A DNA stretch of 64,000 nucleotides from contig NC_092000.1 in assembly GCF_044704955.1 (NCBI RefSeq), positions 10,540,001 through 10,604,000 on the forward strand. The letters run 5' to 3'. Below are positions 4,422-55,600 of this stretch, piece by piece (within the stretch, counting starts at the first letter, position 1; each line of letters opens with the position of its first letter). The notes below the pieces were generated by a model. The model ran no database searches and was not told the origin of the DNA. It was given only the letters and a program-made list of their open reading frames with translations. The stretch is from Pristiophorus japonicus (lineage: Eukaryota). The position numbers and the translations under genes are program-made.

Positions 4422-4796
4422 GTTACCCTTCTCCTCTGGGAGGTCCTGAGCACGCCCCAAGTCCAGTACCTGCTAACGGCCCTCCTTCAGGACCCCCAAT
4501 GCCTTCTGGACCGGGAGGGGTTCCTATGGATGGTGGAGACCCCCAGACCCTGGGGCAGCAAAACCGCGGACCCTCCCCTTTCAACCAGGGGCAGCTGCAT
4601 CAGCTGCGAGCGCAAATCATGGCGTACAAGATGCTGGCAAGAGGCCAGCCCATTCCGGATCACCTGCAGCTGGCTGTACAAGGGAAGAGACCGCCACCTG
4701 GAATGCAGCAGCAGATGTCGTCACTACCTCCGCCCTCTAACCCTGGCACTGGAGCAGCTTCGGGCCCAGCACCCGGCAACTACAACAGGCCGCTCG
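4422..4796 (+). CDS. SMARCA4: SMARCA4 exon 4 (QLQ domain)
   Basis: tatag|GTTAC; [14 protein letters not shown]...[38 protein letters not shown]...NYNRPL; G|gtaccc; 375 nt, phase 1-1. Confidence 0.93.
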
Positions 4797-4953
4797 GTAC
4801 CCACCTCTTCAATTACCTGACGGGTCGCGCTTTTAACTTGCATTGATTGTTAGCGGTGGCGAACAAACCAAACTTTAGTATAAAGCAGACACACTCATAA
4901 GCAGGCCATAGCTGATCTTCGACATCAACTCCACCTTCCCGCCCGATCCCCAT

Positions 4954-5195
4954 TGTAATGTATTTGCTTCATGGGTTCTGTGCTAAAGCACTCATAGCAA
5001 CACATTGCTATTAAGAACTAGTTGGTTTATTAACAAAGGTTTAATAATCACACTACACATTACCAGTCCATCCACCAGGCTCACAGCCACCTGCCTCATC
5101 ATGGATTCGCCTAAATCCAACTGACTGGTTTTTTTTTTGAGTCTTGTGAACATCACGTGACTGGCTAAGCCACTCACAATTCAACAGCTCTACAA
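4954..5195 (-). mobile_element. LTR-like element copy A (host of Tx1 tandem array; other end missing)
   Basis: Begins TGTAATGT; reverse complement aligns with 33558-34249 outside its insert, and directly with 41081-41309. Confidence 0.75.
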
Positions 5196-5866
5196 CTATT
5201 TTTGTTGTATCTGTAAATCAAATGCCCCCTTCTTAAAGGGGCACTAAAACTGACAGTTTCAACAAATTAAACTTTAAACGATCAAATTTAAATTTGGTTG
5301 CTGGGGTTGATGACGCACTCCAGTCCCTCCGGCGCCCACCTCTCGCGGAAGGCCGCGAGCGTACCGGTGGACACCGCGTGCTCCATCTCCAGGGACACCC
5401 TGGCTCAGATGTAACCGCGGAAGAGAGGCAGGCAGGCAGTCAGGCTGAACGACCCCCTCGACCGCCCGCTGCCTGGACTGGCTGATGGCCCCCTTGGCCA
5501 TGCCCAGGACCAGTCCTACGAGGAAGCCTTCCGACCCTTCCACTCCCCTCCACACAGGGTGCCCAAAGATCAGGTGTGTGGGACTGAAGTGCAACCAGAA
5601 TTTGAGGAGCAGCCCCTTCAACTAATGGAACCGGGGCTGCAACCTTGCACATTCAACATAAATATGGAACACATACTCCTCCAGACCGCAGAAATTGCAG
5701 ACGGCCTGGGAGCCTGCAAAACTGACTTAAAAAACGATTGCACGGGACTGCCCCATGTAACACCCTCCAGGCCAAGTCCCCAATAAATAGAGGGAGGACT
5801 CCCACGTAGAGCGCACTCCATTGGAGACCCCGTCCCCTCTAGACGGCAGGATGGTGCAGCATGGCG
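5196..5866 (-). mobile_element. Tx1-clade non-LTR retrotransposon, 5'-truncated (unit 1)
   Basis: ORF2 C-terminus KGLLLKFWLHFSPTHLIFGHPV...AVQ.DCLP; bounded by CAACAGCTCTACAA at 5182 and 5869. Confidence 0.85.
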
Positions 5867-5882
5867 TTCAACAGCTCTACAA

Positions 5883-6959
5883 CTATTTTGTTGTATACTT
5901 TAATCAAGTGCACAATGATTAAAGGTGGGGGGTCAAACCAAAACCTTTTCAAGTGCCCCTTTTTTTTGAGGGCACCAAAACTCTAATTTTACAAGTGCCC
6001 CCTGGCTAAAGGGGGGGGGGGGGCACTAAAAACCGACAAGCTTAAACAAATTAACCTTTAGACAAGTGGTTCAAATTTGGTTGCCGGGGGTGATGATGCA
6101 CTCCAGCCCCTCCAGCGCCCACCTCTCGCGGAAGGCCGCGAGCGTACCAGTGGACACCATGTGCTCCATCTCCAGGGACCCTGACTCGGATGTAACTGCG
6201 GAAGAGAGGCAGGCAGTCAGGCTAAATGACCCCTTCATCTGCCCGCTGTCTGGACCGGCTGATGGCCCCCTTGGCCATGCCCAGGAGCAGTCCTACGAGG
6301 AGGTCTTCACGACCTGCCCGCTCCCCTCCGCACAGGGTGCCCAAAGATCAGGAGTGCGGGACTGAAGGGCAACCAGAATTTGAGGAGCAGCCCCTTTAGA
6401 TATTGGAAGAGGGGCTGCAACATCGCACATTCAGTAAAAACATGGAACACAGACTCTTCCAGACCGCAGAAATTGCAGGCGGCCTGGGAGCCAGTGAACC
6501 GACTTAAAAACTTATTGCACGGAACTGCTCCATGCAACACCCTCCAGGCCAAGTCCCCAATAAATAGAGGAAGGACTCTCGTGTAGAGTGCACTCCATTG
6601 GGGACCTCCGCCTCCTCCGGACAGCAAGATAGTGTTCCATGGTGTGTTTGGATGGCTGACGAGGATGGCAACGTGGAGAGTGTGCATGAGCAGCCCGTAC
6701 AGGGAATACCCTCCGTGCAGAACTGAAAGGCACAGAGGGGATTTCCCGGAGGAGGCTCAAGTTGTGAGGCGCCGGCTCCCGAGGGAGGTTTCGGGGTTTG
6801 ACGCCGATGATGAATTCTGTCCGGACGGGGGTCAGTTCGGACGGGATCTCCCCACGTGCTTGGGCCTCCTCGACACACCTAACGGAGTCAGGGCCCAGTG
6901 CTATTTTTAGCGACTTGATGGCATTGGCCGGACGTCGGCCCAGAATAGGCGCCGTGCCA
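5883..6959 (-). mobile_element. Tx1-clade non-LTR retrotransposon, 5'-truncated (unit 2)
   Basis: GDLAWRVLHGAVPCNKFLSRF...CNFCGLEESVFHVFTEC: C-terminal CCHC zinc knuckle typical of Tx1/L1-group ORF2; bounded by repeats at 5869 and 6961. Confidence 0.88.
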
Positions 6960-6974
6960 TCAACAGCTCTACAA

Positions 6975-7262
6975 CTCTTTTGGTTGGAAAACAAAATTAA
7001 ACAGTTAAATCAAGTGCCCCCTGATCTGGGGGACACCCCAAACACTTATCAAGGCCCTTTTTGTATTTTTTTTGTTTTTTTTAATGGTTTTTTTTTTGTG
7101 GGTTTTTTTGCGCACTAAAGCCATAAATTTACAAGTGCCCCCTATAAAAGGGGAGGGGGACACTAAAACCGGCAATAAAACAAATTCAACTTTAAAACAT
7201 ATAAAATCAAATTAAAATTTGGTTGCCGGGGGTGATGATGCACTCCAGTCCCTCCGGCGCCC
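6975..7262 (-). mobile_element. Tx1-clade element, short 3' fragment (unit 3)
   Basis: 3'UTR plus last ORF2 codons (ggttgccgggggtgatgatgcactccagtccctccggcgcc); repeats at 6961 and 7264. Confidence 0.82.
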
Positions 7263-7277
7263 TCAACAGCTCTGCAA

Positions 7278-7497
7278 CTCTTTTGGAGTAAAACATAATT
7301 AACATTAAATCAAGTGCCCCCCCTACTCTGGGGGACAGTCCAGCCACTTTTCAACTGCCATTTTTTGGGGGGTTTTTGTGTTTATTTTGATTTTTTTTTG
7401 TGATTTTTTTTTTTGGGCATTAAAACCATAAATCATAAATTTTACAAGTGCCCCCTATAAAATGGGAGGGGGACACTAAAAATCCGGCAATTAAACA
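7278..7497 (-). mobile_element. Tx1-clade element, 3'UTR only (unit 4, far end deleted)
   Basis: 3'UTR similar to unit 3 (caagtgccccc...ggacactaaaa...ccggcaattaaac). Confidence 0.75.
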
Positions 7498-7699
7498 GTG
7501 TGTGTGTTCATGTGACAGTCTGCTCATTGGGGACGGAACTGAGGTTAACATTAAAACTGGTGCTGGTTGTGTATGAACACATACATTTGGGAACATTTCT
7601 CGTAGCCCCTTTTAATGACTAAATTGTCCCCCTCCTCCCTCATGCTCACTTTTCATCCTCCTGCCTTGCAATCTGTATAGAATGTGGCACCGTGGAATG

Positions 7700-8700
7700 A
7701 GGCACAGGGTACTGGGGCACCAGTATACCAGGGCACGGTACTGGGGCACCAGTATACCAGGGCACAGTACTGGGGTACCAGTATACCAGGGCACAGTACT
7801 GGGGTACCAGTATACCAGGGCATGGTACTGGGGTACCAGTATACCAGGGCACGGTACTGGGGTACCAGTATACCAGGGCACAGTACTGGGGTACCAGTAT
7901 ACCAGGGCACGGTACTGGGGTACCAGTATACCAGGGCACGGTACTGGGGTACCAGTATACCAGGGCACAGTACTGGGGTACCAGTATACTAGGGCACGGT
8001 ACTGGGGTACCAGTATACTAGGGCATGGTACTGGGGCACCAGTATACCAGGGCATGGTACTGGGGTACCAGTATACTAGGGCACGGTACTGGGGCACCAG
8101 TATACTAGGGCACCAGTATACTTGGGCACGGTATTGGGGTACCGTGAATTGGAGCAGTGGGTATTGGGGGTACCAGTATACCAGGGCATGGTACTGGGGT
8201 ACCAGTATACCAGGGCACGGTACTGGGGTACCAGTATACTAGGGCACGGTACTGGGGCACCAGTATACTTGGGCACGGTATTGGGGTACCGTGAATTGGA
8301 GCGGTGGGTATTGGGGTACCAGTATACTAGGGCACAGTACTGGGGTACCAGTATACTAGGGCACGGTACTGAGGCACCGTGAATTGGAGCAGTGGCTATT
8401 GGGGTAAAGGGGGGTACCAGTATACTAGGGCACGGTACTGGGGCACTGTGAATTGGAGCAGTGGTTATTGGGGTAAAGGGGTGTACAAGTATACTAGGGC
8501 ACGGTACCGGGGTACCGTGAATTGGAGCAGTGGGTATTGGGGTACCAGTATACTAGGGCACGATACCGGAGCACCGTGAATTGGAGCAGTGGGTATTGGG
8601 GTACCAGTATACTAGGATACTGTAACGGGGCACCAGCGCAATGGAGTACTGGAATACCGTGCATTGAGGAACTGGGTACCTGGGACCAGTATATTAGTGA
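7700..8700. repeat. 29-bp minisatellite GGTACTGGGGTACCAGTATACCAGGGCAC, degenerating rightwards with a GTGAATTGGAGCAGT variant unit
   Basis: Tandem units read directly. Confidence 0.95.
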
Positions 8701-9195
8701 ACAGTATATTAGGTCACTTGAGCATCAGTGTATTGGGGCACAGGATACTAGAGCATTGGGTTCTAGAGCACCCACATGTAGCGGCATTGTAGCGTTACTT
8801 CCCCCTCTACTGAGCTGCAGGTCTTGGTTGTGAAGAGGATGCTGAGAAGGTCCTATGTGACCTGTGCAGGGGTGACCGGAAGGAAGATCAGAGGGAGTAG
8901 CATCACTGAACAGCTCTCATGCCTTTGTGGCAGTATAAGAGTTTGATTTAGTGGTAACCTGGGACTGGCTGCACTCACTGACTCAGGAAGAGGTGTGGTT
9001 TGGGAGTGTCTAGTAAAGGGAGAACCGCAAGAATGTCTTGGGGTGGGAATTGGCCGTATCCAGGCCCTGCCAAAGCACTGGTCCTCACATAAGCTTCCCA
9101 TTGTTATCTTGAGTTCAACTTCTAAAACCAACCCCACCTGTGCCATTGCATCCATTTGATTTTCTCTCTTCCCCTGCCCTCATTTCCTCTCACAG

Positions 9196-9967: not shown

Positions 9968-12195
9968 TATTAGTATTAGGCAGTCCCTCGTATAGAAACA
10001 TAGAAACTAGGTGCAGGAGTAGGCCATTCGGCCCTTCGAGCCTGCACCGCCATTCAATGAGTTCATGGCTGAACATGCAACTTCAGTACCCCATTCCTGC
10101 TTTCTCGCCATACCCCTTGATCCTCCTAGTAGTAAGGACTACATCTAACTCCTTTTTGAATATATTTAGGGAATTGGCCTCAACAACTTTCTGTGGTAGA
10201 GAATTCCACAGGTTCACTACTCTCTGGGTGAAGAAGTTTCTCCTCATCTCGGTCCTAAATGGCTTACCCCTTATCCTTAGACTGTGACCCCTGGTTCTGG
10301 ACTTCCCCAACATTCCTGCATCTAACCTGTCTTAAACCCGTCAGCATTTTAAACGTTTCTATGAGATCCCCTCTCATTCTTATGAACTCTAGTGAATACA
10401 AGCCCAGTTGATCCAGTCTTTCTTGATATGTCAGTCCCGCCATCCCGGGAATCAGTCTGGTGAACCTTCGCTGCACTCCCTCAATAGCAAGAATGTCCTT
10501 CCTCAAGTTAGGAGACCATAACTGTACACAATACTCCAGGTGTGGCCTCACCAAGGCCCTGTATAACTGTAGCAACACCTCCCTGCCCCTGTACTCAAAT
10601 CCCCTCACTATGAAGGCCAACATGCCATTTGCTTTCTTAACTGCCTGCTGTACCTGCATGTTAACCTTCAATGACTGATGTACCATGACACCCAGGTCTC
10701 GTTGCACCTCCCCTTTTCCTAATCTGTCACCATTCAGATAATAGTCTGTCTCTCTGTTTTTACCACCAAAGTGGATAACCTCACATTTATCCACATTATA
10801 CTTCATCTGCCAAGCATTTGCCCACTCACCTAACCTATCCAAGTCATTCTGCAGCCTCATAGCATCCTCCTCGCAGCTCATACTGCCACCCAACTTAGTA
10901 TCATCTGCAAATTTGGAGATACTACATTTAATCCCCTTGTCCAAATCATTAATGTACAATGTAAACAGCTGGGGCCCCAGCACAGAACCTTGCGGTATCC
11001 CACTAGTCACTGCCTGCCATTCTGAAAAGTACCCATTTACTCCCACTCTTTGCTTCCTGTCTGACAACCAGTTCTCAATCCATGTCAGCACACTACCCCC
11101 AATCCCATGTGCTTTAACTTTGTACATTAATCTCTTGTGTGGGACCTTGTCGAAAGCCTTCTGAAAGTCCAAATATACCACATCAACTGGTTCTCCCGTG
11201 TCCACTCTACTGGAAACATCCTCAAAAAATTCCAGAAGATTTGTCGAGCATGATTTCCCTTTCACAAATCCATGCTGACTTGGACCTATCATTTCACCTC
11301 TTTCCAAATGCACTGCTATGACATCCTTAATAATTGATTCCATCATTTTACCCACTACTGATGTCAGGCTGACCGGTCTATAATTCCGTTTTCTCTCTCC
11401 CTCCTTTTTTAAAAAGTGGGGTTACATTGGCTACCCTCCACTCGATAGGAACTGATCCAGAGTCTATGGAATGTTGGAAAATGACTGTCAATGCATCTGC
11501 TATTTCCAAGGCCACCTCCTTAAGTACTCTGGGATGCAGTCCATCAGGCCCTGGGGATTTATCGGCCTTCAATCCCATCAATTTCCCCAACACAATTTCC
11601 CGACTAATAAGGATTTCCCTCAGTTCCTCCTTCTTACTAGACCCTCTGACCCCTTTTATATCCGGAAGGTTGTTTGTGTCCTCCTTAGTGAATACCGAAC
11701 CAAAGTACTTGTTCAGTGGTCTGCCATTTCTTTGTTCCCCGTTATGACTTCCCCTGATTCTGACTGCAGGGGACCTACTAACCTTTACTAACCTTTTTCT
11801 CTTTACATATCTATAGAAACTTTTGCAGTCCGTCTTAATGTTCCCTGCATGCTTCCTCTCGTACTCTATTTTCTCTGCTCTAATCAAACCCTTTGTCCTC
11901 CTCTGCTGAGTTCTAAATTTCTCCCAGTCCCCAGGTTCACTGCTATCGAGGATGACTTGCTTCCACACCAAAAAGGGATGAGTTCATAGGTGTTTCAATG
12001 AGGAAACTGACATTCTCGGTCCCGAACTACATACTGAAAGGTGGAAGATGCCTGTGCATGGATTCTTTTAACGTGTGGTGGCCGTTTCACACCAGCCACC
12101 ACACGGGCTTGACAGAGCTAGGTCTTGATCCAGTGGCAAAGGTTAACCAAGACGACTGGAGACCAAGCTCTGCTGCACGGACCTAGTGCGCACAC
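9968..12195 (-). mobile_element. Putative RTE-related non-autonomous short retroelement (~275 bp: 9968-9993 plus 11944-12195) split by a young CR1
   Basis: Rejoined end GTGGAAGCAAGTCATCCTCGATACGAGGGACTGCCTAA with (TACTAA)n tail; 9-bp TSD TTGGCTTAG (9959-9967 and 12196-12204); RTE relationship is from recall. Confidence 0.55.
9994..11943 (-). mobile_element. Young CR1 LINE, 5'-truncated, RT region with frameshifts
   Basis: [37 protein letters not shown]; (ATAGAAAC)n tail. Confidence 0.96.
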
Positions 12196-13905: not shown

Positions 13906-15404
13906 CACATTCCATTGACTCTGAATCAGTTCCTATGGAGTGGAGGGTAGCCAATGTAACCCCACTTTTTAAAAAAGGAGGGAGAGAGAAAACAGGAAAT
14001 TATAGACCGGTCAGCCTGACATCGGTAGTGGGTAAAATGATGGAATCAATTATTAAGGATGTCATAGCAGTGCATTTGGAAAGAGGTGACATGATAGGTC
14101 CAAGTCAGCATGGATTTGTGAAAGGGAAATCATGTTTGACAAATCTTCTGGAATTTTTTGAGGATGTTTCCAGTAGAGTGGACAAGGGAGAACCAGTTGA
14201 TGTGATATATTTGGACTTTCAGAAGGCTTTCGACAAGGTCCCACACAAGAGATTAATGTACAAAGTTAAAGCACATGGGATTGGGGGTAGTGTGCTGACA
14301 TGGATTGAGAACTGGTTGTCAGACAGGAAGCAAAGAGTAGGAGTAAATGGGGACTTTTCAGAATGGCAGGCAGTGACTAGTGGGGTACCGCAAGGTTCTG
14401 TGCTGGGGCCCCAGCTGTTTACACTGTACATTAATGATTTAGACCAGGGGATTAAATGTAGTATCTCCAAATTTGCGGATGACACTAAGTTGGGGGTGGC
14501 AGTGTGAGCTGCGAGGAGGATGCTATGAGGCTGCAGAGCGACTTGGATAGGTTAGGTGAGTGGGCAAATGCATGGCAGATGAAGTATAATGTGGATAAAT
14601 GTGAGGTTATCCACTTTGGTGGTAAAAACAGAGAGACAGACTATTATCTGAATGGTGACAGATTAGGAAAAGGGGAGGTGCAACGAGACCTGGGTGTCAT
14701 GGTACATCAGTCATTGAAGGTTGGCATGCAGGTACAGCAGGCGGTTAAGAAAGCAAATGGCATGTTGGCCTTCATAGTGAGGGGATTTGAGTACAGGGGC
14801 AGGGAGGTGTTGCTACAGTTGTACAGGGCCTTGGTGAGGCCACACCTGGAGTATTGTGTACAGTTTTGGTCTCCTAACCTGAAGAAGGACATTCTTGCTA
14901 TTGAGGGAGTGCAGCGAAGGTTCACCAGACTGATTCCCGGGATGGCGGGACTGACCTATCAAGAAAGACTGGATCAACTGGGCTTGTATTCACTGGAGTT
15001 CAGAAAAATGAGAGGGGACCTCATAGAAACGTTTAAAATTCTGACGGGGTTAGACAGGTTAGATGCAGGAAGAATGTTCTCAATGTTGGGGAAGTCCAGA
15101 ACCAGGGGACACAGTCTAAGGATAAGGGGTAAGCCATTTAGGACCGAGATGAGGAGAAACTTCTTCACCCAGAGAGTGGTGAACCTGTGGAATTCTCTAC
15201 CACAGAAATTGTTGTGGCCAATTCACTAAATATATTCAAAAAGGAGTTAGATGAAGTCCTTACTACTAGGGGGATCAAGAGGTATGGCGAGAAAGCAGAA
15301 ATGGGGTACTGAAGTTGCATGTTCAGCCATCGAATGGCGGTGCAGGCTAGAAGGGCCGAATGGCCTACTCCTGCTGCACCTATTTTCTATGTTTCTATGT
15401 TTCT
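13906..15404 (+). mobile_element. Young CR1 LINE, 5'-truncated, nested in an older CR1
   Basis: RT ORFs 13935-14507 and 14504-15229 (frameshift); (TTTCTATG)n tail. Confidence 0.96.
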
Positions 15405-33523: not shown

Positions 33524-34249
33524 TGTAATGTGTGTACCCGCGAGTATGCTCACAGGTTTGTAGAGCTCTTGAGTTGTGAGTGGCTTAGCCAGTCACATGA
33601 TGTTCACAAGACTCAATAAAACCTCGGCCAGTTGGTTTCGGGAAATCCATGATGAGGCAGGTGGTTGTGAGCCTGGTGGATGAACTGGTAACGTGGCCTT
33701 CTCGTAGGACTGCTCCTAGGCACGGCCAAGGGGGGCCATCAGCGGTCCAGGCAGCGGGTGGTCGAGGGGGGCATTCAACCTGACTGCCTGCCTCTCTTCC
33801 GCAGTTACATCCGAGCCAGGATGTCCCTGGAGATGGAGCACGCGGTGTCCACAGGTACGCTCGCGGCCTTCCGTGAGAGGTGGGCGCCGGAGGGACTGGA
33901 GTGCATCATCACCCCCAGCAACCAAATTTTAATTTGATCATTTCAATTCAAAGTTTAATTTGCCGGTTTTAGTGCCCCGCCTCCTCCTTTAGCCAGGGGG
34001 CACTTGTGTAATTTCTGTTTTTAGTGCCCAAAAAAAAAAGGAAGGAAAAAAACGGGGCACTGGAAAAAACTTATTTTGGAGTGTGACCCACCTTGCAGGA
34101 GGAATTTGTTTAAAGTGAACAACTAAAATAGTTGAACTGGTAATGTGTAGTGCGATTGTTAAACCTTTGCTAATAAACCAACTAGTTCTTAATAGCAATG
34201 TCTTGCTATGAATTCTTAAGCAAAGGACTCAGGAAACAAATACATTACA
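33524..34249 (+). mobile_element. LTR-like element copy B (complete, ~274 bp without insert), probable solo LTR
   Basis: 8-bp terminal inverted repeat TGTAATGT...ACATTACA; two AATAAA motifs; flanks GGCAG / GGCAC. Confidence 0.78.
33692..34132 (+). mobile_element. Tx1-clade element 3' fragment inside LTR copy B
   Basis: Same ORF2 end and 3'UTR as units 1-2; 11-bp TSD TGAACTGGTAA (33681-33691 and 34133-34143); ends AAAATAGT. Confidence 0.87.
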
Positions 34250-41080: not shown

Positions 41081-41977
41081 TGTAATATATTTGCTTTGTG
41101 GGTTCTTTGCTTAAGAATTCATAGCAACACATTGCCATTAAGAACTAGTTGGTTTATTAACAATCACACTACACATTACCAGTCCATCCACCAGGCTCAC
41201 AACCACCTGCCTCATCGTGGATCCCCTGAACTCAACTGGCTGGGGTTTTATTGAGTCTTGTGAACATCACATGACTGGCTAGGCCACTCACAACTCAACA
41301 GCTTCATAACTATTTTAAGTTTCACCTGTAAATCAAGTGCCCCCTGGTTAAAAGTCAGGGGAGGGGGGAGCACTAAAACCGACACAATTAAACAAATTAA
41401 ACTTGGACACTCAACTGAATCAAATTAAAATTTGGTTGCCAGGGGTGATGATGCACTCCAGTCCCTCCGGCGCCCACCTCTCGTGGACGGCCGCGAGCGT
41501 ACCGGTGGACACCGCGTGCTCCATCTCCATGGACACCCTGGCTCGGATGTAACTGCGAGAGAGGCAAGCAGTCGGGCTGAACAACCCCCTCGACCGCCTG
41601 CTGCCTGGACCAGCTAATGGCCCCCTTGGCCATGCCCAGGAGCAGTCCTACGAGGAGGCCTTCCAACCTACCCGTTCCCCTCCGCACCGGGTGCCCAAAG
41701 ATCAGGAGTGTGGGACTGAAGTGCAACCAGAATTTGAGGAGCAGCCCCTTCAAATAATGGAACAGGGGCTGCAACCTCACACATTGCACATACACATGGA
41801 ACACAGACTCTTCCAGACCGCAGAAATTGCAGGCGGCCTGGGAGGCTGTGAACTGACTTCAAAACTGATTGCACGGAACTGCTCTGTGCAACACCTTCCG
41901 GGCCAAGTCCCCAATAAATAAAGGAAGGACTCCCAAATAGAGAGCACTCCATTGGGCCAACAGCTCTACAAACCTGT
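41081..41977 (-). mobile_element. LTR-like element copy C (41081-41309 plus 41958-41977)
   Basis: Begins TGTAAT; aligns with 4954-5195; resumes after the insert as CAACAGCTCTACAAACCTGT, matching copy B. Confidence 0.75.
41310..41957 (-). mobile_element. Tx1-clade element, 5'-truncated, inside LTR copy C
   Basis: FHVYVQCVRLQPLFHYLKGLLLKFWLHFSPTLLIFGHPVRRG; imperfect TSD CAACAGCTTCATAA / CAACAGCTCTACAA. Confidence 0.87.
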
Positions 41978-43699: not shown

Positions 43700-46600
43700 A
43701 ACCTACTGCCCCCCATCCCGGTGTCTAATCCACTGCCCTGCAACCTCACTGTCTACCCCGCAACCGCACTGTCTACCCCACTGCCCCTGTTACCCCAGTG
43801 TCATATCCACTGGCCCTGTTACCCCAGTGTCTAATCCACTGCCCTGCAACCGCACTGTCTACCCCACTGCCCCTATTACCCCAGTGCCTACCCCACAGCC
43901 CTGGTACACCAGTGTCCAATCCACTGCCCTGTTACCCCAGCTTCTAATTCACTGCCCCTGTTGCCCCAGTGTCGAATCCACTGCCCCTGTTACCCCAGTA
44001 TCTAATCCACTGCCCCTGTTACCCCAGTGTCTAATCCACTGCCCCTGTTACACCAGTGTCTAATCCATTGCTCCTGTTACCCCAGTGTCTAATCCACTGC
44101 CCCTGTTATCCCAGTGTCTAATCCACTGCCCCTGTTACACCAGTGTCTAATCCACTGCCCCTGTTACCCCAGTGTCTAATCCACTGCCCCTGTTACCCCA
44201 GTGTCTAATCCACTGCCCCTGTTATCCCAGTGTCTAATCCACTGCCCCTGTTACACCAGTGTCTAATCCACTGCCCCTGTTACCCCAGTGTCTAATCCAC
44301 TGCCCCTGTTACACCAGTGTCTAATCCACTGCCCCTGTTAGCCCAGTGTCTAATCCACTGCCCCTGTTACCCCAGTATCTAATCCACTGCCCCTGTTACC
44401 CCAGTGTCTAATCCACTGCCCCTGTTACACCAGTGTCTAATCCACTGCCCCTGTTACCCCAGTGTCTAATCCACTGCCCCTGTTACACCAGTGTCTAATC
44501 CACTGCCCGTGTTACCCCAGTGTCTAATCCACTGCCCGTGTTACCCCAGTGTCTAATCCACTGCCCCTGTTAGCCCAGTGTCTAATCCACTGCCCCTATT
44601 ACCCCAGTGTCTAATCCACTGCCCCTGTTACCCCAGTGTCTAATCCACTGCCCCTGTTACCCCAGTATCTAATCTACTGCCCCTGTTACCCGACTCTCTT
44701 ATCCACTGCCCCTGTTACCCCAGTGTCTAATCCACTGCCTCCACTGCCCCTGTTACCCCAGTGTCTAATACACTGCCCCTGTTACCCCAGTGTCTAATCC
44801 ACTGCCCCTGTTACCCCAGTGTCTAATCCACTGCCCCTGTTACCCCAGTGCCGAACCCACTGCCCTATTACCCCAGTGTCTAATCCACTGCCCCTGTTAC
44901 CCCAGTGTATACCCCATTGCCCTGTTACCCCAGTGTCTAAACCACTGCCCTGTTACCCCAGTGTCTAATCGACTGCCCCTGTTACCCCAGTGTCTAATCG
45001 ACTGCCCCTGTTACCCCAGTGTCTAATCCACTGCCCCTGTTACCCCAGTGTCTGATCCACTGCCCCTGTTACCCCAGTGTCTAATCCACTGCCCCTGTTA
45101 CCCCAGTGTCTGATCCACTGCCCCTGTTACCCCAGTGTCTGATCCACTGCCCCTTTTACCCCAGTGTCTAATCCACTGCCCCTGTTACCCCAGTGTCTAA
45201 TCCACTGCCCCTGTTACCCCAGTGTCTAATCCATTGCCCGTTACCCCAGTGTCTAATCCACTGCCCCTATTACCCCAGTATCTAATCCACTGCCCTTGTT
45301 ACCCCAGTGCCTACCCCACTGCCCTATTACCCCAGTGTCTAATCCAGTGCCCCTGTTACCCCAGTGTCTAATCCAGTGCCCCTGTTACCCCAGTGTCTAA
45401 TCCACAGTCCCTGTTACCCCAGTGTCTAATCCACAGTCCCTGTTACCCTAGTGTCTAATCCACTGCCCCTGTTACCCCAGTGTCTAATCCACTGCCCCTG
45501 TTACCCGAGTCTCTTATCCACTGCCCCTGTTACCCCAGTGTCTAATCCATTGCCCCTGTTACCACAGTGTCTAATCCACTGCCCCTGTTACCCCCGTGTC
45601 TAATCCAGTGCCCCTGTTACCCCAGTGCCTACCCCACTGCCCTATTACCCCAGTGTCTAATCCACTGCCCCTGTTACCCCAGTGTCCAATCCACTGCCCT
45701 TGTTACCCCCAGTGTCTACCCCACTGCCCTGGTACCCCAGCGTCTAATCCACTGCCCCTGTTACCCCAGTGTCTAATCCACTGCCCCTTTTAGCCCAGTG
45801 TCTAATCCACTGCCCCTGTTACCCCTGTGTCTAATCCACTGCCCTGTAACCCCATTGTCTACCCCACTGCCCCTGTTACCGCAGCGTCTAATCCACTGCC
45901 CGTGTTACCCCAGTGTCTAATCCACTGCCCGTGTTACCCCAGTGTCTAATCCACTGCCCCTGTTAGCCCAGTGTCTAATCCACTGCCCCTATTACCCCAG
46001 TGTCTAATCCACTGCCCCTGTTACCCCAGTGTCTAATCCACTGCCCCTGTTACCCCAGTATCTAATCTACTGCCCCTGTTACCCGACTCTCTTATCCACT
46101 GCCCCTGTTACCCCAGTGTCTAATCCACTGCCTCCACTGCCCCTGTTACCCCAGTGTCTAATCCACTGCCCCTGTTACCCCAGTGTCTAATCCACTGCCC
46201 CTGTTACCCCAGTGTCTAATCCACTGCCCCTGTTACCCCAGTGCCGAACCCACTGCCCTATTACCCCAGTGTCTAATCCACTGCCCCTGTTACCCCAGTG
46301 TATACCCCATTGCCCTGTTACCCCAGTGTCTAATCGACTGCCCCTGTTACCCCAGTGTCTAATCGACTGCCCCTGTTACCCCAGTGTCTAATCCACTGCC
46401 CCTGTTACCCCAGTGTCTGATCCACTGCCCCTGTTACCCCAGTGTCTAATCCACTGCCCCTGTTACCCCAGTGTCTGATCCACTGCCCCTGTTACCCCAG
46501 TGTCTGATCCACTGCCCCTGTTACCCCAGTGTCTAATCCACTGCCCCTGTTACCCCAGTGTCTAATCCACTGCCCCTTTTACCCCAGTGTCTAATCCACT

Positions 46601-49600
46601 GCCCCTGTTACCCCAGTGTCTAATCCACTGCCCCTGTTACCCCAGTGTCTAATCCATTGCCCGTTACCCCAGTGTCTAATCCACTGCCCCTATTACCCCA
46701 GTATCTAATCCACTGCCCTTGTTACCCCAGTGCCTACCCCACTGCCCTATTACCCCAGTGTCTAATCCAGTGCCCCTGTTACCCCAGTGTCTAATCCAGT
46801 GCCCCTGTTACCCCAGTGTCTAATCCACAGTCCCTGTTACCCCAGTGTCTAATCCACAGTCCCTGTTACCCTAGTGTCTAATCCACTGCCCCTGTTACCC
46901 CAGTGTCTAATCCACTGCCCCTGTTACCCGAGTCTCTTATCCACTGCCCCTGTTACCCCAGTGTCTAATCCATTGCCCCTGTTACCACAGTGTCTAATCC
47001 ACTGCCCCTGTTACCCCCGTGTCTAATCCAGTGCCCCTGTTACCCCAGTGCCTACCCCACTGCCCTATTACCCCAGTGTCTAATCCACTGCCCCTGTTAC
47101 CCCAGTGTCCAATCCACTGCCCTTGTTACCCCCAGTGTCTACCCCACTGCCCTGGTACCCCAGCGTCTAATCCACTGCCCCTGTTACCCCAGTGTCTAAT
47201 CCACTGCCCCTTTTAGCCCAGTGTCTAATCCACTGCCCCTGTTACCCCTGTGTCTAATCCACTGCCCTGTAACCCCATTGTCTACCCCACTGCCCCTGTT
47301 ACCGCAGCGTCTAATCCACTGCCCTGTTACCCCAGTGCCGACCCCACTGCCCTATTACCCCAGTGTCTACCCCACTGCCCTGTTACCCCAGTGCCTCCCC
47401 CACAGCCCTATTACCCCCATGTCTAATCCACTGCCCCTGTTACCACAGTGCCTACCCCACTGCCCTATTACCCCAGTGTCTACCCCACTGCCCTGTTACC
47501 CCAGTGCCGACCACACTGCCCTGTTTATCCCAGTGTCTAATCTACTGCCCTTGTTACCCCAGTGTCTAATCCACTGCCCCTGTCACCCCAGTGTCTAATC
47601 CACTGTCCCTGTTACCCCAGTGTCTACCCCATTGTCCTGTTACCCCAGCGTCTCATTCAATGCCCCTGTTACCCCAGTGTCTAATCCACTGCCCCTGTTA
47701 CCCCAGTGTCTAATCCACTGCCCCTGTTACCCCAGTGTCTAATCCACTGCCCCTGTTACCCCAGTGTCTCATCCACTGCCCCTGTTACCCCAGTGTCTCA
47801 TCCACTGCGCCTGTTACCCCAGTGTCGAATCCACTGCCCCTGTTACCCCAGTGTCGAATCCACTGCCCCTGTTACCCCAGAGTCTAATCCACTGCCCCTG
47901 TTACCCCAGTGTCTAATCCACTGCCCTATAACCCCAGTGTCTACCCCATTGCCCTGTTACCCCAGCGTCTAATTCACTGCCCCTGTTACCCCAGTGTCAT
48001 ATCCATAGTCCCTGTTACCCCAATGTCTAATCTACAGCCCCTGTTACCCCAGTGTCTAATCCACTGCCCCTGTTACCGCAGTGTCTAATCCACTGCCCCT
48101 GTTACCCCAGTGTCAAATCAACTGCCCCTGTTACCCCAGTGTCTAATCCACTGCCTCCACTGCCCCTGTTACCCCAGTGTTTAATCCACTGCCCCTGTTA
48201 CTCCAGTGTCAAATCAACTGCCCCTGTTACCCCAGTGTCTAATCCACTGCCTCCACTGCCCCTGTTACCCCAGTGTTTAATCCACTGCCCCTGTTACTCC
48301 AGTGTCTACTCCAGTGCCCCTGTTACCCCAGTGTCTAATCCACTGCCCTATAACCCCAGTGTCTACCCCATTGCCCTGTTACCCCAGCGTCTAATTCACT
48401 GCCCTATAACCCCAGTGTATAATCCACTGCCTCTGTTACCCCAGTGTCGAATCAACTGCCCCTGTCACCCCACTGTCTAATCCACTGCCTCCACTGCCCC
48501 TGTTACCCCAGTGTTTAATCCACTGCCCCTGTTACCCCAGTGTCTAATCCAGTGCCCCTGTTACCCCAGTGTCTAATCCACTGCCCTATAACCCCAGTGT
48601 CTACCCCATTGCTCTGTTACCCCAGCGTCTAATTCACTGGCCCTGTTACCCCAGTGTCAATTCCACTGCCCCTGTTACCCCAGTGTCTAATCCACTGCCC
48701 CTGTTACCCCAGCGTCTAATTCACTGGCCCTGTTACCCCAGTGTCAATTCCACTGCCCCTGTTACCCCAGTGTCTAATCCACTGCCCCTGTTACCCCAGT
48801 GTCTAATCCACTGCCCCTGTTACCCCAGTGTCTAATCCACTGCCCCTGTTACCCCAGTGTCTAATCCACTGCCCCTGTTACCCCAGTGCCTACCCCACTG
48901 CCCTATTACCTCAGTGTCAATTCCACTGCCCCTGTTACCCCAGTGCCTACCCCACTGCCCTATTACCCCAGTGTCTAATCCACTGCCTCCACTGCCCCTG
49001 TTACCCCAGTGTTTAATCCACTGCCCCTGTTACCCCAGTGTCTAATCCAGTGCCCCTGTTACCCCAGTGTCTAATCCACTGCCCTATAACCCCAGTGTCT
49101 ACCCCATTGCCCTGTTACCCCAGCGTCTAATTCACTGGCCCTGTTACCCCAGTGTCAATTCCACTGCCCCTGTTACCCCAGTGTCTAATCCACTGCCCCT
49201 GTTACCCCAGCGTCTAATTCACTGGCCCTGTTACCCCAGTGTCAATTCCACTGCCCCTGTTACCCCAGTGTCTAATCCACTGCCCCTGTTACCCCAGTGT
49301 CTAATCCACTGCCCCTGTTACCCCAGTGTCTAATCCACTGCCCCTGTTACCCCAGTGTTTAATCCACTGCCCCTGTTACCCCAGTGTCTAATCCAGTGCC
49401 CCTGTTACCCCAGTGTCTAATCCACTGCCCTATAACCCCAGTGTCTACCCCATTGCCCTGTTACCCCAGCGTCTAATTCACTGGCCCTGTTACCCCAGTG
49501 TCAATTCCACTGCCCCTGTTACCCCAGTGTCTAATCCACTGCCCCTGTTACCCCAGCGTCTAATTCACTGGCCCTGTTACCCCAGTGTCAATTCCACTGC

Positions 49601-52600
49601 CCCTGTTACCCCAGTGTCTAATCCACTGCCCCTGTTACCCCAGTGTCTAATCCACTGCCCCTGTTACCCCAGTGTCTAATCCACTGCCCCTGTTACCCCA
49701 GTGCCTACCCCACTGCCCTATTACCCCAGTGTCTAATCCACTGCCCCTGTTACCCCAGTGTCCAATCCACTGCCCTTGTTACCCCCAGTGTCTACCCCAC
49801 TGCCCTGGTACCCCAGCGTCTAATCCACTGCCCCTGTTACCCCAGTGTCTAATCCACTGCCCCTGTTACCCCCGTGTCTAATCCACTGCCCTGTTACCCC
49901 AGTGCCGACCCCACTGCCCTATTAACCCAGTGTCTACCCCACTGCCCTGTTACCCCAGTGCCTCCCCCACTGCCCTATTACCCCCATGTCTAATCTACTG
50001 CCCCTGTTACCACAGTGCCTACCCCACTGCCCTATTACCCCAGTGTCTACCCCACTGCCCTGTTACCCCAGTGCCGACCACACTGCCCTGTTTATCCCAG
50101 TGTCTAATACACTGCCCTGTTTATCCCAGTGTCTAATACACTGCCCTGGTACCCCAGCGTCTAATCCACTGCCCCTGTTACCCCAGTGTCTAATCCACTG
50201 CTCCTGTTACCCCAGTGTCTAATCCACTGCCCCTGTTACCCCAGTGTTTAACCCACTGCCCCTGTTACCCCAGTGTCTAACCCACTGCCCCTGTTACCCC
50301 AGTGTCTAATCCACTGCCCCTGTTACCCCAGTGTTTAACCCACTGCCCCTGTTACCCCAGTGTCTAATCCACTGCCCCTGTTACCCCAGTGTCTAATCCA
50401 CTGCCCCTGTTACCCCAGTGTCTAATCCATTGCCCCGTTACCCCAGTGTCTAGTCCACTGCCCCTGTTACCCCAGTGTCTAATCCACTGCCCTGGTACCC
50501 CAGTATCTAATCCACTGCGCCTGTTACCCCAGTGTCTAGCCCACTGCCCTGTTACCCCAGTGCCGACCACACTGCACTGTTTATCCCAGTATCTAATCCA
50601 CTGCCCTGGTACCCCAGTATCTAATCCACTGCCCCTGTTACCCCAGTATCTAATCCACTGCCCCTGTTACTCCAGTGTCTAATCCACTGCCCCTGCTACC
50701 CCAGTGTCTAATCCATTGCCATTGTTACCCCAGTGTCTAATCCACTGCCCCTGTTACCCCAGTGTCTAATCCACTGCCCCTGTTACCCCAGTGTCTAATC
50801 CAATGCTCCTGTTACCCCAGTGTCTAATCCATTGCCCGTTACCCCAGTATCTAATCCACTGCCCCTGTTACCCCAGTGTCTAATCCATTGCCCGTTACCC
50901 CAGTATCTAATCCACTGCCCCTGTTACCTCAGTGTCTAATCCACTGCCCCTGTTACCCCAGTGTCTAATCCACTGCCCCTATTACCTCAGTGTCTAATCC
51001 ACTGTCCTGTTACCCCAGTATCTAATCCACTGCCCCTGTTACCTCAGTGTCTAATCCACTGCCCCTGTTACCCCAGTGTCTAATCCACTGCCCCTATTAG
51101 CCCAGTGTCTAATCTACTGCCCCTGTTACCCCAGTGTCTAATCCACTGCCCTTGTTACCCCAGTGTCTAATCCACTGCCCGTATTAGCCCAGTGTCTAAT
51201 CTACTGCCCCTGTTACCCCAGTGTCTAATCCACTGCCCCTGTTAGCGCAGCGTCTAATCCACTGCCCTTGTTACCCCCGTGTCTAATCCACTGCCCCTGT
51301 TACCCCAGTGCCTACCCCACTGCCCTATTACCCCAGTGTCTAATCCACTGCCCCTGTTACCCCTGTGTCTAATCCACTGCCCTGTAACCCCAGTGTCTAC
51401 CCCACTGCCCCTGTTACCGCAGCGTCTAATCCACAACCCTTGTTACCCCCGTGTCTAATCCACTGCCCCTATTAGCACAGTGTCTAATCTACTGCCCCTG
51501 TTACCCCAGTGTCTAATCCACTGCCCCTGTTAGCGCAGCGTCTAATCCACTGCCCTTGTTACCCCCGTGTCTAATCCACTGCCCCTGTTACCCCAGTGCC
51601 TACCCCACTGCCCTATTACCCCAGTGTCTAATCCACTGCCCCTGTTAGCGCAGCGTCTAATCCACTGCCCTTGTTACCCCCGTGTCTAATCCACTGCCCC
51701 TGTTACCCCAGTGCCTACCCCACTGCCCTATTACCCCAGTGTCTAATCCACTGCCTCTGTTACCCCAGTGTCTAATCCACTGCCCCTGGTACCCCAGTAT
51801 CTAATCCACTGCCCCTGTTACCGCAGTGTCTAAGCAACTGCCCCTGTTACCCCAGTGTCTAATCCACTGCCCCTGTTACCTCAGTGTCGAATCCACTGAC
51901 CCTGTTACCCCACTGTCGAATCCACTGCCTCTGTTACCCCAGTGTCTAATCCACTGCCCCTGTTACCACAGTGTCTAATCCACTGCCCCTGTTACCCCAG
52001 TGTCTAATCCACTGCCCCTGTTACCCCAGTGTCTAATCCATTGCCCCTGTTACCCCAGTGTCTAATCCACTGCCCCTGTTACCCCAGTGTCTAATCCACT
52101 GCCCCTGTTACCCCAGTGTCTAATCCAATGCCCCTGTTACCCCAGTATCTAATCCACTGCCCCTGTTACCCCAGTGTCTAATCCACTGCCCCTGATACCC
52201 CAGTCTCTAATCCACTGCCCCTGTTACCCCAGTGTCTAATCCACTGCCCCTGTTACCCCACTGTCTCATCCACTGCCCCCGTTACCCCAGTGTCTAATCC
52301 ACTGCCCCTGTTACCCCAGTGTCTAATCCACTGCCCCTATTACCCCAGTGTCTAATCCACTGCCCCTGTTACCCCAGTGTCTAATCCACTGCCCCTGTTA
52401 CCCCAGTGTCTAATCCACTGCCCCTGTTACCCCAGTGTCTAATCCACTGCCCCTGTTACCCCAGTGTCTGATCCACTGCCCCTGTTACCCCAGTGTCTGA
52501 TCCACTGCCCCTGTTACCCCAGTGTCTGATCCACTGCCCCTGTTACCCCAGTGTCTGATCCACTGCCCTGTTACCCCAGTGTCTAATCCACTGCCCCTGT

Positions 52601-55600
52601 TACCCCAGTGTCCAATCCACTGCCCCTGTTACCCCAGTGTCTAATCCACTGCCCTGTTACCCCAGTGTCTAATCCACTGCCCCTGTTACCCCAGTGTCTA
52701 ATCAACTGCCCCTGTTACTCCAGTGTCTAATCCACTGCCCCAGTTATCCCAGTGTCTAATCCACTGCCCTTGTTATCCCAGTGTCTGATCCACTGCCCTG
52801 TTACCCCAGTGTCTAAACCACTGCCCCTGTTACTCCAGTGTCTAATCCACTGCCCCAGTTACCCCAGTGTCTAATCCAGTGCTCCTGTTACCCCAGTGTC
52901 GAATCCAGTGCTCCTGTTACCCCAGTGTCTAATCCACTGCCCCTGTTACCCCAGTGTCTAATCCACTGTCCCTGTTACCCCAGTGTCTAATCCACTACCC
53001 CTGTTACCCCAGTGTCTAATCCACGACCCTGTTACCCCAGCGTCTACCCCATTGCCCTGTTACACCAGCGTCTAATCCACTGCCCCTGTTACCCCAGTGT
53101 CTAATCCACTGCCCCTGTTACCCCAGTGTCTAACCAATGCCCCTGTTACCCCAGTGTCGAATCTACTGCCCCTGTTACCCCAGTGTCGAATCCACTGCCC
53201 CGTTACCCCAGTGTCTAATCCACTGCCCCTGTTACCCCAGTGTCTAATCCACTGCCCCTGTTACCCCAGTGTCTAATCCACTGCGCCTGTTACCCCAGTG
53301 TCTAATCCATTACCCCTGTTACCCCTGTGTCGAATCCACTGGCCCTGTTACCCCAGTATCTAATCCACTGCCCCTGTTACCCCAGTGTCTCGTCCACTGC
53401 CCCTGTTACCCCAGTGTCTAGTTCACTGCCCCTGTTACCCCAGTGTCTAATCCACTGTCCCTGTTACCCCAGTATCCAATCCACTGTCCCTGTTACCCCA
53501 GTATCCAGTCCACTGCCCCTGTTACCCCCAGTGTCTACCCCACTGCCCTGTTACCCCAGTGCCGACCACACTGCACTGTTTATCCCAATGTCTAATCCAC
53601 TGCCCCTGTTACCCCAGTGTCTAATCCACTGCCTTGTTACCCCAGTGTCTAATCCACTGCCCTGTTACCCCAGTGTCTAATCAACTGCCCCTGTTACTCC
53701 AGTGTCTAATCCACTGCCCCAGTTATCCCAGTGTCTAATCCACTGCCCTTGTTATCCCAGTGTCTGATCCACTGCACTGTTACCCCAGTGTCTAAACCAC
53801 TGCCCCTGTTACTCCAGTGTCTAATCCACTGCCCCAGTTACCCCAGTGTCTAATCCAGTGCTCCTGTTACCCCAGTGTCGAATCCAGTGCTCCTGTTACC
53901 CCAGTGTCTAATCCACTGCCCCTGTTACCCCAGTGTCTAATCCACTGCCCCTGTTACCCCGGTGTCTAATCCACTGCCCCTGTTACCCCAGTGTCTAATC
54001 CACGACCCTCTTACCCCAGCGTCTACCCCATTGCCCTGTTACCCCAGCGTCTAATCCACTGCCCCTGTTACCCCAGTGTCTAATCCACTGCCCCTGTTAC
54101 CCCAGTATGTAATCCACTGCCCCTGTTACCCCAGTGTCTAATCTACTGCCCCTGTTACCCCAGTGTCGAATCTACTGCCCCTGTTACCCCAGTGTCGAAT
54201 CCACTGCCCGTTACCCCAGTGTCTAATCCACTGCCCCTGTTACCCCAGTGTCTAATCCACTGCCCCTGTTACTCCAGTGTCTAATCCACTGCGCCTGTTA
54301 CCCCAGTGTCTAATCCATTGCCCCTGTTACCCCTGTGTCGAATCCACTGGCCCTGTTACCCCAGTATCTAATCCACTGCCCCTGTTACCCCAGTGTCTCG
54401 TCCACTGCCCCTGTTACCCCAGTGTCTAGTTCACTGCCCCTGATACCCCAGTGTCTAATCCACTGCCCTGGTACCCCAGTATCTAATCCACTGTCACAGT
54501 TACCCCAGTATCCAATCCACTGTCCCTGTTACCCCAGTATCCAATCCACTGCCCCTGTTACCCCCAGTGTCTACCCCACTGCCCTGTTACCCCAGTGCCG
54601 ACCACACTGCACTGTTTATCCCAATGTCTAATCCACTGCCCCTGTTACCCCAGTGTCCAATCCACTGCCTTGTTACCCCAGTGTCGAATCCATTGCCTTG
54701 TTACCCCTGTGTCTAATCCACTGCCCTGTTACCCCAGTGTCTAATCCACTGCCCATGTTACTCCAGCGTCTAATCCACTGCCCCTTTTACTCCAGTGTCT
54801 AATCCACTGCCCCTGTTACCCCAATGTCTAATCCACTACCCCTGTTACCCCAGTGTCTAATCCACTGCCCCTGTTACCCCAGTGTCTAATCCACTGCCCC
54901 TGTTATCCCAGTGTCTAATCCACTGCCCTGGTACCCCAGTATCCAATCCACTGCCCCTGTTACCCCCAGTTTCTACCCCACTGCCCTGTTACCCCAGTGC
55001 CGACCACACTGCACTGTTTATCCCAATGTCTAATCCACTGCCCTGTTACCCCAGTGTCCAATCCACTGCCCTGTTACCCCAGTGTCTGATCCACTGCCTT
55101 GTTACCCCAGTGTCTAATCCACTGCCCTGTTACCCCAGTGTCTAAAATACTGCCCCTGTTACCCCAGTGTCTAATCCACTGACCCTGTTGTCCCAGTGTC
55201 TAATCCACTGCCCCTGTTACCCCAGTGTCTAATCCACTGCCCCTGTTACCCCAGTGTCTAATCCACTGCCCCTGTTACCCCAGTGTCTTATCCACTGCCC
55301 CTGTTACCCCAGTGTCTTATCCACTGCCCCTGTTACCCCAGTGTCTAATCCACTGCCCCTGTTTCCCCAGTTTCTCATCCACTGCCCCTGTTACCCCAGT
55401 GTCTCATCCACTGCCCCTGTTACCCCAGTGTCTGATCCACTGCCCCTGTTACCCCAGTGTCTGATCCACTGCCCCTATTACCCCAGTGTCTGATCCATTG
55501 CCCCTGTTACCCCAGTGTCTGATCCACTGACCCTGTTACCCCAGTGTCCAATCCACTGTCCTGTTACCCCAGTGTCTGATCCACTGCCCCTATTACCCCA

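Follow-up and report, generated by a model that had tools for sequence, protein, structure and literature searches.

Four 5′-truncated copies of a Tx1 retrotransposon, of different subtypes and separated by 14-bp repeats, are stacked at one fixed site of a Gypsy LTR in the genome of Pristiophorus japonicus, and the likely origin of this arrangement is four successive target-primed insertions, with age falling from unit 1 to unit 4 (probability about 0.88). The stack lies in the window, the whole stretch of 64,000 nt that was analyzed (GCF_044704955.1, NC_092000.1, positions 10,540,001–10,604,000); labels consisting of L and a number (e.g. L097) each denote one genomic locus examined outside it. 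The layout is given in Table 1. The 15-mer pattern noticed in the preliminary description recurs exactly at 5181, 5868, 6960, and 7263, the fourth copy as a G variant, and with up to two mismatches it has 7 matches in the window compared with a shuffle mean of 0.26. The trailing ACT of the pattern is the Tx1 3′ end and lies outside the target, empty sites having AAACC there. The bodies of units 1–4 measure 673, 1078, 289, and 221 bp, all on the minus strand, and, as originally noted, their 5′ ends all differ, so that no 5′ breakpoint is shared among them. Pairwise identity is 85% over 634 bp for units 1 and 2, 79% over 240 bp for units 3 and 4, and 77% for units 2 and 3. Residues 1089–1212 of Tx1L ORF2 match unit 2 at 51% (E = 3e-30) and unit 1 at 59%. 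The first 14-bp repeat (5181) runs uninterrupted into the LTR-like host, as had been described, and downstream of 7497 there is no 35-bp LTR remainder, no fifth repeat, and no LTR 5-bp duplication. Read outward from the LTR the unit types are A, A, C, C (old, old, young, young); the window data order the A pair against the C pair, the order of unit 1 versus unit 2 and of unit 3 versus unit 4 not being shown separately.

Table 1. Position, strand, and basis of assignment of the stack and the related features of the window.
Feature	Position	Strand	Basis or remark
Exon with QLQ domain, upstream in host gene	4442..4797	+	Pfam QLQ E 3.8e-16; exon translations
Gypsy solo-LTR remnant	4954..5194	-	~240 of 274 bp, without the 5′-most ~35 bp; numerous dispersed copies match at 91%
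Target site B, LTR-proximal copy, 14 bp	5181..5194	.	pattern match; filled/empty site counts
Tx1 unit 1, older (A), ORF2 C terminus + 3′UTR, 5′-truncated, likely oldest	5195..5867	-	10/10 diagnostic sites old-type
Target-site duplication copy 2	5868..5881	.	pattern match
Tx1 unit 2, older (A), longest, other 5′ end	5882..6959	-	16/18 diagnostic sites old-type
Target-site duplication copy 3	6960..6973	.	pattern match
Tx1 unit 3, younger (C), 3′UTR + last ORF2 codons	6974..7262	-	five best 3′-end matches at other loci all C, top 91%
Target-site duplication copy 4, one A>G change	7263..7276	.	pattern match
Tx1 unit 4, younger (C), 3′UTR only, likely youngest, no closing repeat or LTR remainder after it	7277..7497	-	unit alignment, type diagnosis
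Third LTR copy: site B empty; sister-subfamily Tx1 at site A with own ~14-bp duplication	33558..34249	+	sequence comparison
Second LTR copy, one Tx1 at site B, closing repeat at 41957	41081..41970	-	sequence comparison

The stack is antisense to a gene, in the intron after the QLQ exon, and the gene is presumably SMARCA4/2-like. Both further host LTR copies in the window have also been hit by Tx1. Other repeats of the window are a 29-bp minisatellite (7618–8745) that starts about 120 bp past the stack, a pair of inverted repeats of about 1.4 kb (10065–11474 and 13907–15330) with 94–98% identity and 2.4–5 kb apart, and 20 kb of satellite-like sequence (44000–64000) in which the strand skew is strong and constant (GC skew about −0.48).

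The inserts are a non-LTR retrotransposon of the Tx1 clade, as the preliminary description had proposed. The family is 7.1 kb long, a length seen in several natural copies that are often arranged head-to-tail (20 loci found with an ORF1/ORF2 junction probe). These copies contain ORF1 and ORF2, with matches to PF03372 (APE endonuclease) and PF00078 (RT) above the cut-off and to zf-RVT and zf-CCHC below it. The closest named protein among the 120 matches listed is Xenopus Tx1L ORF2 (YTX2_XENLA, E = 2.5e-233), with 48% identity over 97% of an 829-residue ORF2 stretch and 46% in the endonuclease; the fish pol-like proteins among the matches listed reach 35–37% with the same query. A quick IQ-TREE analysis (18 rows, midpoint root, no L1 outgroup) places the family in a clade with Tx1L and a turtle protein, with an SH-aLRT value of 100. 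The names Tx1-8_Crp, Tx1-4_AMi, Keno, Kibi, Koshi, and Dewa are absent among the 120 protein matches listed. Across the sampled loci the 5′-truncated copies with target-site duplications carry the signature of target-primed reverse transcription. Arrays of full-length 7-kb elements, head-to-tail with the repeat between copies, occur at L208, L209, L210, L213, L219, and L223. A 5′-end variant with a shorter leader that starts with another 13-mer, and that has been re-hit by further copies, is found at L055, L205, and L215; L055 had been considered an off-target stack with a locus-specific repeat, an assignment that was dropped as the same 13-mer opens the variant at L205 and L215. At L096 (8850–10000), taken together with L143, an unrelated Gypsy-type element splits a full-length Tx1 in the endonuclease.

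The host is a minus-strand Gypsy LTR, present in the window as a solo LTR. This identification is based on the inverted termini, the 5-bp duplication, the tRNA-Ser(GCT) primer site, and the domain order at L097. Empty host copies measure about 274 bp in all, have short inverted termini (TG...CA), and continue for about 35 bp beyond the repeat up to the inverted terminus, indicating that the target site is internal to the LTR. The 14-mer is positioned about 35–48 bp from the LTR 5′ end, and the Tx1 insertion direction is the LTR's own. The LTR landed before it was entered by Tx1; a 5-bp duplication (4–5 of 5 letters) is found around 36 of 52 LTRs, comprising 25 of 39 that are split and 11 of 13 that are empty. 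In 17 of 59 sampled filled sites the LTR remainder is missing within 7 kb, as in the window. A first look gave 3762 candidates for dispersed host copies. At L097 paired LTRs enclose RT, RNase H, and integrase in Gypsy order, and paired LTRs are present likewise in L092, L098, and L099. A primer-site-like sequence, AAA-TGGCG, recurs after the LTR (366 pattern matches, a considerable fraction being of a single form) and corresponds to the tRNA-Ser(GCT) 3′ end, this tRNA being called in two of four loci. Judging from the tRNA-Ser primer, the host lineage may be Mag-like.

Genome-wide, exact 31-letter patterns of the target, here called site B, gave 2935 filled and 1255 empty sites (of 4190), with none for the reversed-pattern controls, so about 70% of intact patterns are occupied and the fixed target in an LTR suspected from the window is borne out. 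The exact eight target letters precede 3332 of 7733 Tx1 3′-end patterns, a lower bound with copies that have decayed. Of the first 30 3′ ends inspected, 23 (about 19 of 26 separate loci) occupy the site, directly or as members of a stack there, and seven are off target, so the targeting is a strong preference and not strict. Sampling covered the beginning of contig C1 and matches ranked by similarity, and the junctions were curated by eye. Both proportions (at least 3332 of 7733; 23 of 30) exceed the share of more than 20% of flanks in one sequence type that marks a target-specific Tx1 in the relevant part of Kojima 2015 (PMC4494074), and the family is a new example of target-specific Tx1, a targeting habit already known.

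A second target, site A, is located 123 bp further into the LTR, where 110 filled and 4746 empty patterns were counted. Its inserts constitute a sister subfamily with a distinct 3′ tail, seen in 12 of 12 inserts compared with none of 60 first units at site B, and in 36 of 40 in an extended set that overlaps the first in part. Three full-length site-A copies (L262, L263, L273) start with about 43 nt of the site-A target and share changes within it, indicating that the element itself carries a piece of the target. Within the site-A loci examined (L224–L235 and L240–L279), several inserts sit in a carried copy of this ~43-nt target. Comparison of the endonuclease in 10 site-A and 18 site-B copies revealed no fixed difference; the nearest are one I/V column and an S/N exchange at the tip of the hairpin loop (4 of 10 site-A copies versus 0 at site B), and chimeras are possible among them. 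Of 39 site-A loci, 12 have lost the LTR segment between the two sites, 10 have it intact, and 17 are unresolved. At L243, L248, L250–L252, L256, L257, L260, L264, L272, and L274 the 5′ end of the site-A insert joins the site-B repeat, with the inter-site LTR deleted.

Stacks were characterized at the first 60 listed filled sites, of which 59 were used, after removal of L173 (a segmental duplication) and six false 3′-end calls and addition of one missed end; for later counts nine false units were removed. One unit was found at 35 sites, two at 14, three at five, four at one, five at three, and seven at one, giving at least two units in 24 of 59, and a depth equal to or greater than that of the window in 5 of 59. 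Two 3′-end types, A and C, are distinguished. Outward from the LTR body the order is A then C in 15 cases and C then A in none in this sample, and 26 versus 1 over all loci examined, the exception being a rearranged locus. Type C is the younger, as indicated by its higher identity between loci (93.3% versus 85.4% for A; 10 C and 48 A units) and by less CpG decay (34/264, 13%, versus 417/1282, 33%). CpG decay by stack position is 0.34, 0.25, and 0.19 for positions 1, 2, and 3+, and the paired first-versus-last age test is modest (8 versus 5 of 13, p 0.03; 9/13, p 0.057). The stacks thus run from old to young, and of the repeat-spacer-like chronological record that had been proposed the age order holds and the likeness to repeats and spacers is mere analogy.

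At L146, L170, and L174, where the first duplication is short, letters of the distal junction that are foreign to the LTR reappear at the inner junctions; together with the type order this makes it most likely that newcomers enter the repeat still bearing the LTR 5′ flank. The raw tally of inner junctions nearer to the distal or to the proximal repeat is 8:8, a count that does not discriminate, the proximal eight comprising two misregistered ends, three junctions of one locus without the last repeat, and three single substitutions. A palindrome in the LTR 5′ flank has a folding energy of −8.3 kcal/mol in L022, a value obtained with no shuffle control. The possibility that the G of repeat 4 derives from donor RNA was considered and is unsupported, as this position is no hotter than others (6/123 inner junctions).

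Neighboring units frequently have the same 5′ end. Among 41 truncated neighbor pairs with both ends mapped, out of 98 adjacent pairs, 22 have the breakpoint in common, and in almost all of these the 3′ tails differ; pairs from one stack are not independent of each other. For the 59-locus sample together with the window the count is 18 of 42, and among cross-locus pairs a common 5′ junction is found in 8 of 9515. Rare variants present in the older unit are found again in the newer one at a frequency of 48–49% within 50 nt of the break, 30% at 50–100 nt, 23% at 100–200 nt, and 6–13% beyond, compared with controls of 10 and 5%. In the A-C pairs the young unit has old-type letters close to the break: the old-type letter is present in both units at 10 of 18 diagnostic sites near it versus 6 of 31 further off, with no enrichment of both-young sites (5/18 versus 9/31), in a set of only nine pairs with one locus dominant. 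Units sharing a breakpoint are longer than their neighbor in eight cases and shorter in nine. Neighbors of different subtype with one 5′ breakpoint are seen at L135, L158, L174, L181, L183, and L184. The preliminary description had taken identical 5′ breakpoints as a mark of duplication, which proves too simple, since stacks whose units demonstrably belong to different subfamilies often have shared breakpoints. Homology-guided joining to the neighbor during integration fits these data best, and newcomers likely borrow their 5′ start from the older neighbor.

Serial insertion could also be right while the order and the shared breakpoints were shaped afterward by gene conversion or deletion between neighbors, an explanation that we regard as unlikely but worth serious attention. 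Neighboring direct repeats of 85–95% identity are substrates for recombination, shared tracts extend up to about 500 nt at L060, and the loss of the inter-site stretch at site-A loci is explained by either route. Against later conversion, the direction of sharing in the diagnostic sites given above is old-to-new, with the same reservation of nine pairs and one dominant locus, five different 3′ ends meet at one breakpoint at L135, and the strict type order survives. That a single insertion gave rise to the stack through tandem duplication or through unequal crossing-over at the 14-bp repeats, followed by divergence, is very improbable for the window. True duplications do occur inside some other stacks (L131/L132 and blocks in L160 and L182), and common 5′ breakpoints are frequent in stacks; the window units, by contrast, have different breakpoints and are only 77–85% alike, unit 3 resembles a copy at another locus (91%) more closely than it does its neighbors, and the subfamily-specific 3′ ends refute duplication at this locus. 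In breakpoint-sharing pairs, moreover, the sharing of rare variants beyond 200 nt is near the 5% background. The independence of the four insertions, proposed from the window, is thereby upheld.

That the 14-bp repeat is a target-site duplication follows from the off-target copies, which lack the 14-mer and have their own 13–15-bp duplications in 10 of 19 cases (in seven the flank is too short to tell); at single insertions the duplication is 13–15 bp in 12 of 23 and 10 bp or less in 10 of 23. Off-target stacks of two and three units with locus-specific repeats exist at L037 and L127. The target regenerates itself, as had been suggested. We give almost no credence to the 14-mer being the LINE's own 3′ terminus, with an incidental or captured match in the LTR: almost every off-target 3′ junction ends in ACA or CA, as the motif does, and the ~43 nt carried by full-length site-A elements show that target letters can travel, but the off-target copies with their locus-specific duplications refute it, the 14-mer is present in empty LTRs, and sister-subfamily copies at site A have another repeat. 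Spread of Tx1-bearing LTRs as a composite by the Gypsy element, which would reduce the high occupancy to few insertions and would accord with Tx1 inside LTRs of elements that have internal sequence, is excluded for practical purposes by the diversity of junctions between loci, and furthermore 3′ tails differ widely among loci and old LTRs contain young C units.

In the mechanism that we propose for serial insertion, the APE endonuclease would nick the strand reading ...CTCTACA, just before the last 35 bp of the LTR, the nicked 3′ end would prime reverse transcription, and the other strand would be cut about 14 nt away. Each insertion would duplicate the site and enter the copy next to the LTR 5′ end, and because every newcomer enters there, age would drop from unit 1 to unit 4. 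Cutting would recur solely in the copy that retains the LTR upstream context, of which the adjoining palindrome is a candidate element. As the previous insert directly adjoins the new one, the new cDNA may often join through homology with it and end at the neighbor's breakpoint, a step suggested by the genome-wide data and not seen in the window. The closing repeat and LTR end of the window stack probably disappeared with the final insertion or in a deletion that came afterward.

The family resembles Tx1L of Xenopus laevis, the type element of the clade, in its two ORFs, APE endonuclease, RT, and clade membership, and in targeting one site in another mobile element (Tx1D in the case of Tx1L; PMC4494074, PMC1950540); the Tx1L endonuclease is described as sequence-specific (PMC1950540). 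The target of Tx1L is a piggyBac-type DNA transposon, whereas that of the shark family is a Gypsy LTR, and unlike Tx1L the shark family has thousands of dispersed filled sites and stacks with an age order. The suggestion that an LTR element as target might be undescribed is not supported. In the relevant passages of Kojima 2015 (PMC4494074) the crocodilian Tx1-8_Crp and Tx1-4_AMi prefer LTR retrotransposons, a described likeness to the shark family, and tandem SINEU-3 copies sandwiching a TSD, reported with Tx1-Mar, are read as sequential insertions; the same passages contain no analysis of polarity or shared breakpoints. Tx1-8_Crp, Tx1-4_AMi, and Tx1-Mar group with Keno (PMC4494074), whereas the closest named element to the shark family among the matches listed is Tx1L. 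Drosophila R1 in 28S rDNA forms arrays spaced by 14-bp TSDs, with newcomers entering the TSD at the 5′ end of an earlier copy (Stage and Eickbush 2009, PMC2718515), and a target-preferring element that makes TSDs is described as regenerating its own site (McGurk and Barbash, 10.1101/158386). The shark stacks share with R1 the 14-bp TSD between units and, in the part of that work concerned, the same model of entry at the previous copy's 5′ end. LTR-element targets and sequential stacking are therefore already published in these sources (PMC4494074; PMC2718515 for R1). R1 differs in belonging to another clade and in its target, an essential gene array that undergoes concerted evolution; the record in dispersed solo LTRs stays intact, which makes the age order readable in the shark stacks. 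A CRISPR-like array is not what the stacks represent, since all spacers are the same LINE family and no host function is indicated; polarity is the common feature. L1 insertions that form chimeras with an endogenous L1 nearby were reportedly observed by Gilbert et al. in 2002 and 2005 as rare events in cultured cells. They are alike in that homology with an older neighbor completes the 5′ junction, leading to duplication or deletion; in contrast to the rarity reported for cultured cells, shared breakpoints affect about half of neighbor pairs in the natural shark stacks. General L1 target-site deletions and templated insertions have been described (PMC11702581, PMC10760644), and the completion of the LINE 5′ junction and second strand is characterized as still poorly understood in the portion of PMC6895275 that treats it. 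In a literature search with most subscription papers and journals, Repbase, and Repbase Reports outside its scope, no report was found of the present family, of neighbor-shared 5′ truncations, of an age order in Tx1 stacks, of a cartilaginous-fish Tx1 targeting an LTR, or of two-target sister Tx1 subfamilies with near-identical endonuclease.

As a single locus the window stack is ordinary for its genome, and the main interest lies in the polarity of the stacks, the neighbor-shared 5′ ends, and the sister subfamilies with two targets. The family provides a clean vertebrate case of a LINE that parasitizes an LTR element with single-base precision, and from each stack the relative ages of Tx1 subfamilies can be read with no need of a molecular clock. 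The shared breakpoints (22/41 versus 8/9515) and the variant gradient amount to a large natural data set on completion of the 5′ junction. A wider reading, which we offer only tentatively, is that the stacks record how LINE integration finishes, with about half of newcomers copying the neighbor for their 5′ end, that the sister subfamily moved to its site with an unchanged endonuclease by way of the ~43 nt of carried target, and that site choice and junctions may be partly guided by nucleic acid homology instead of depending on the protein alone. Near-identical endonucleases with different 14-bp targets offer a direct test of target choice, which bears on tools for site-specific gene insertion.
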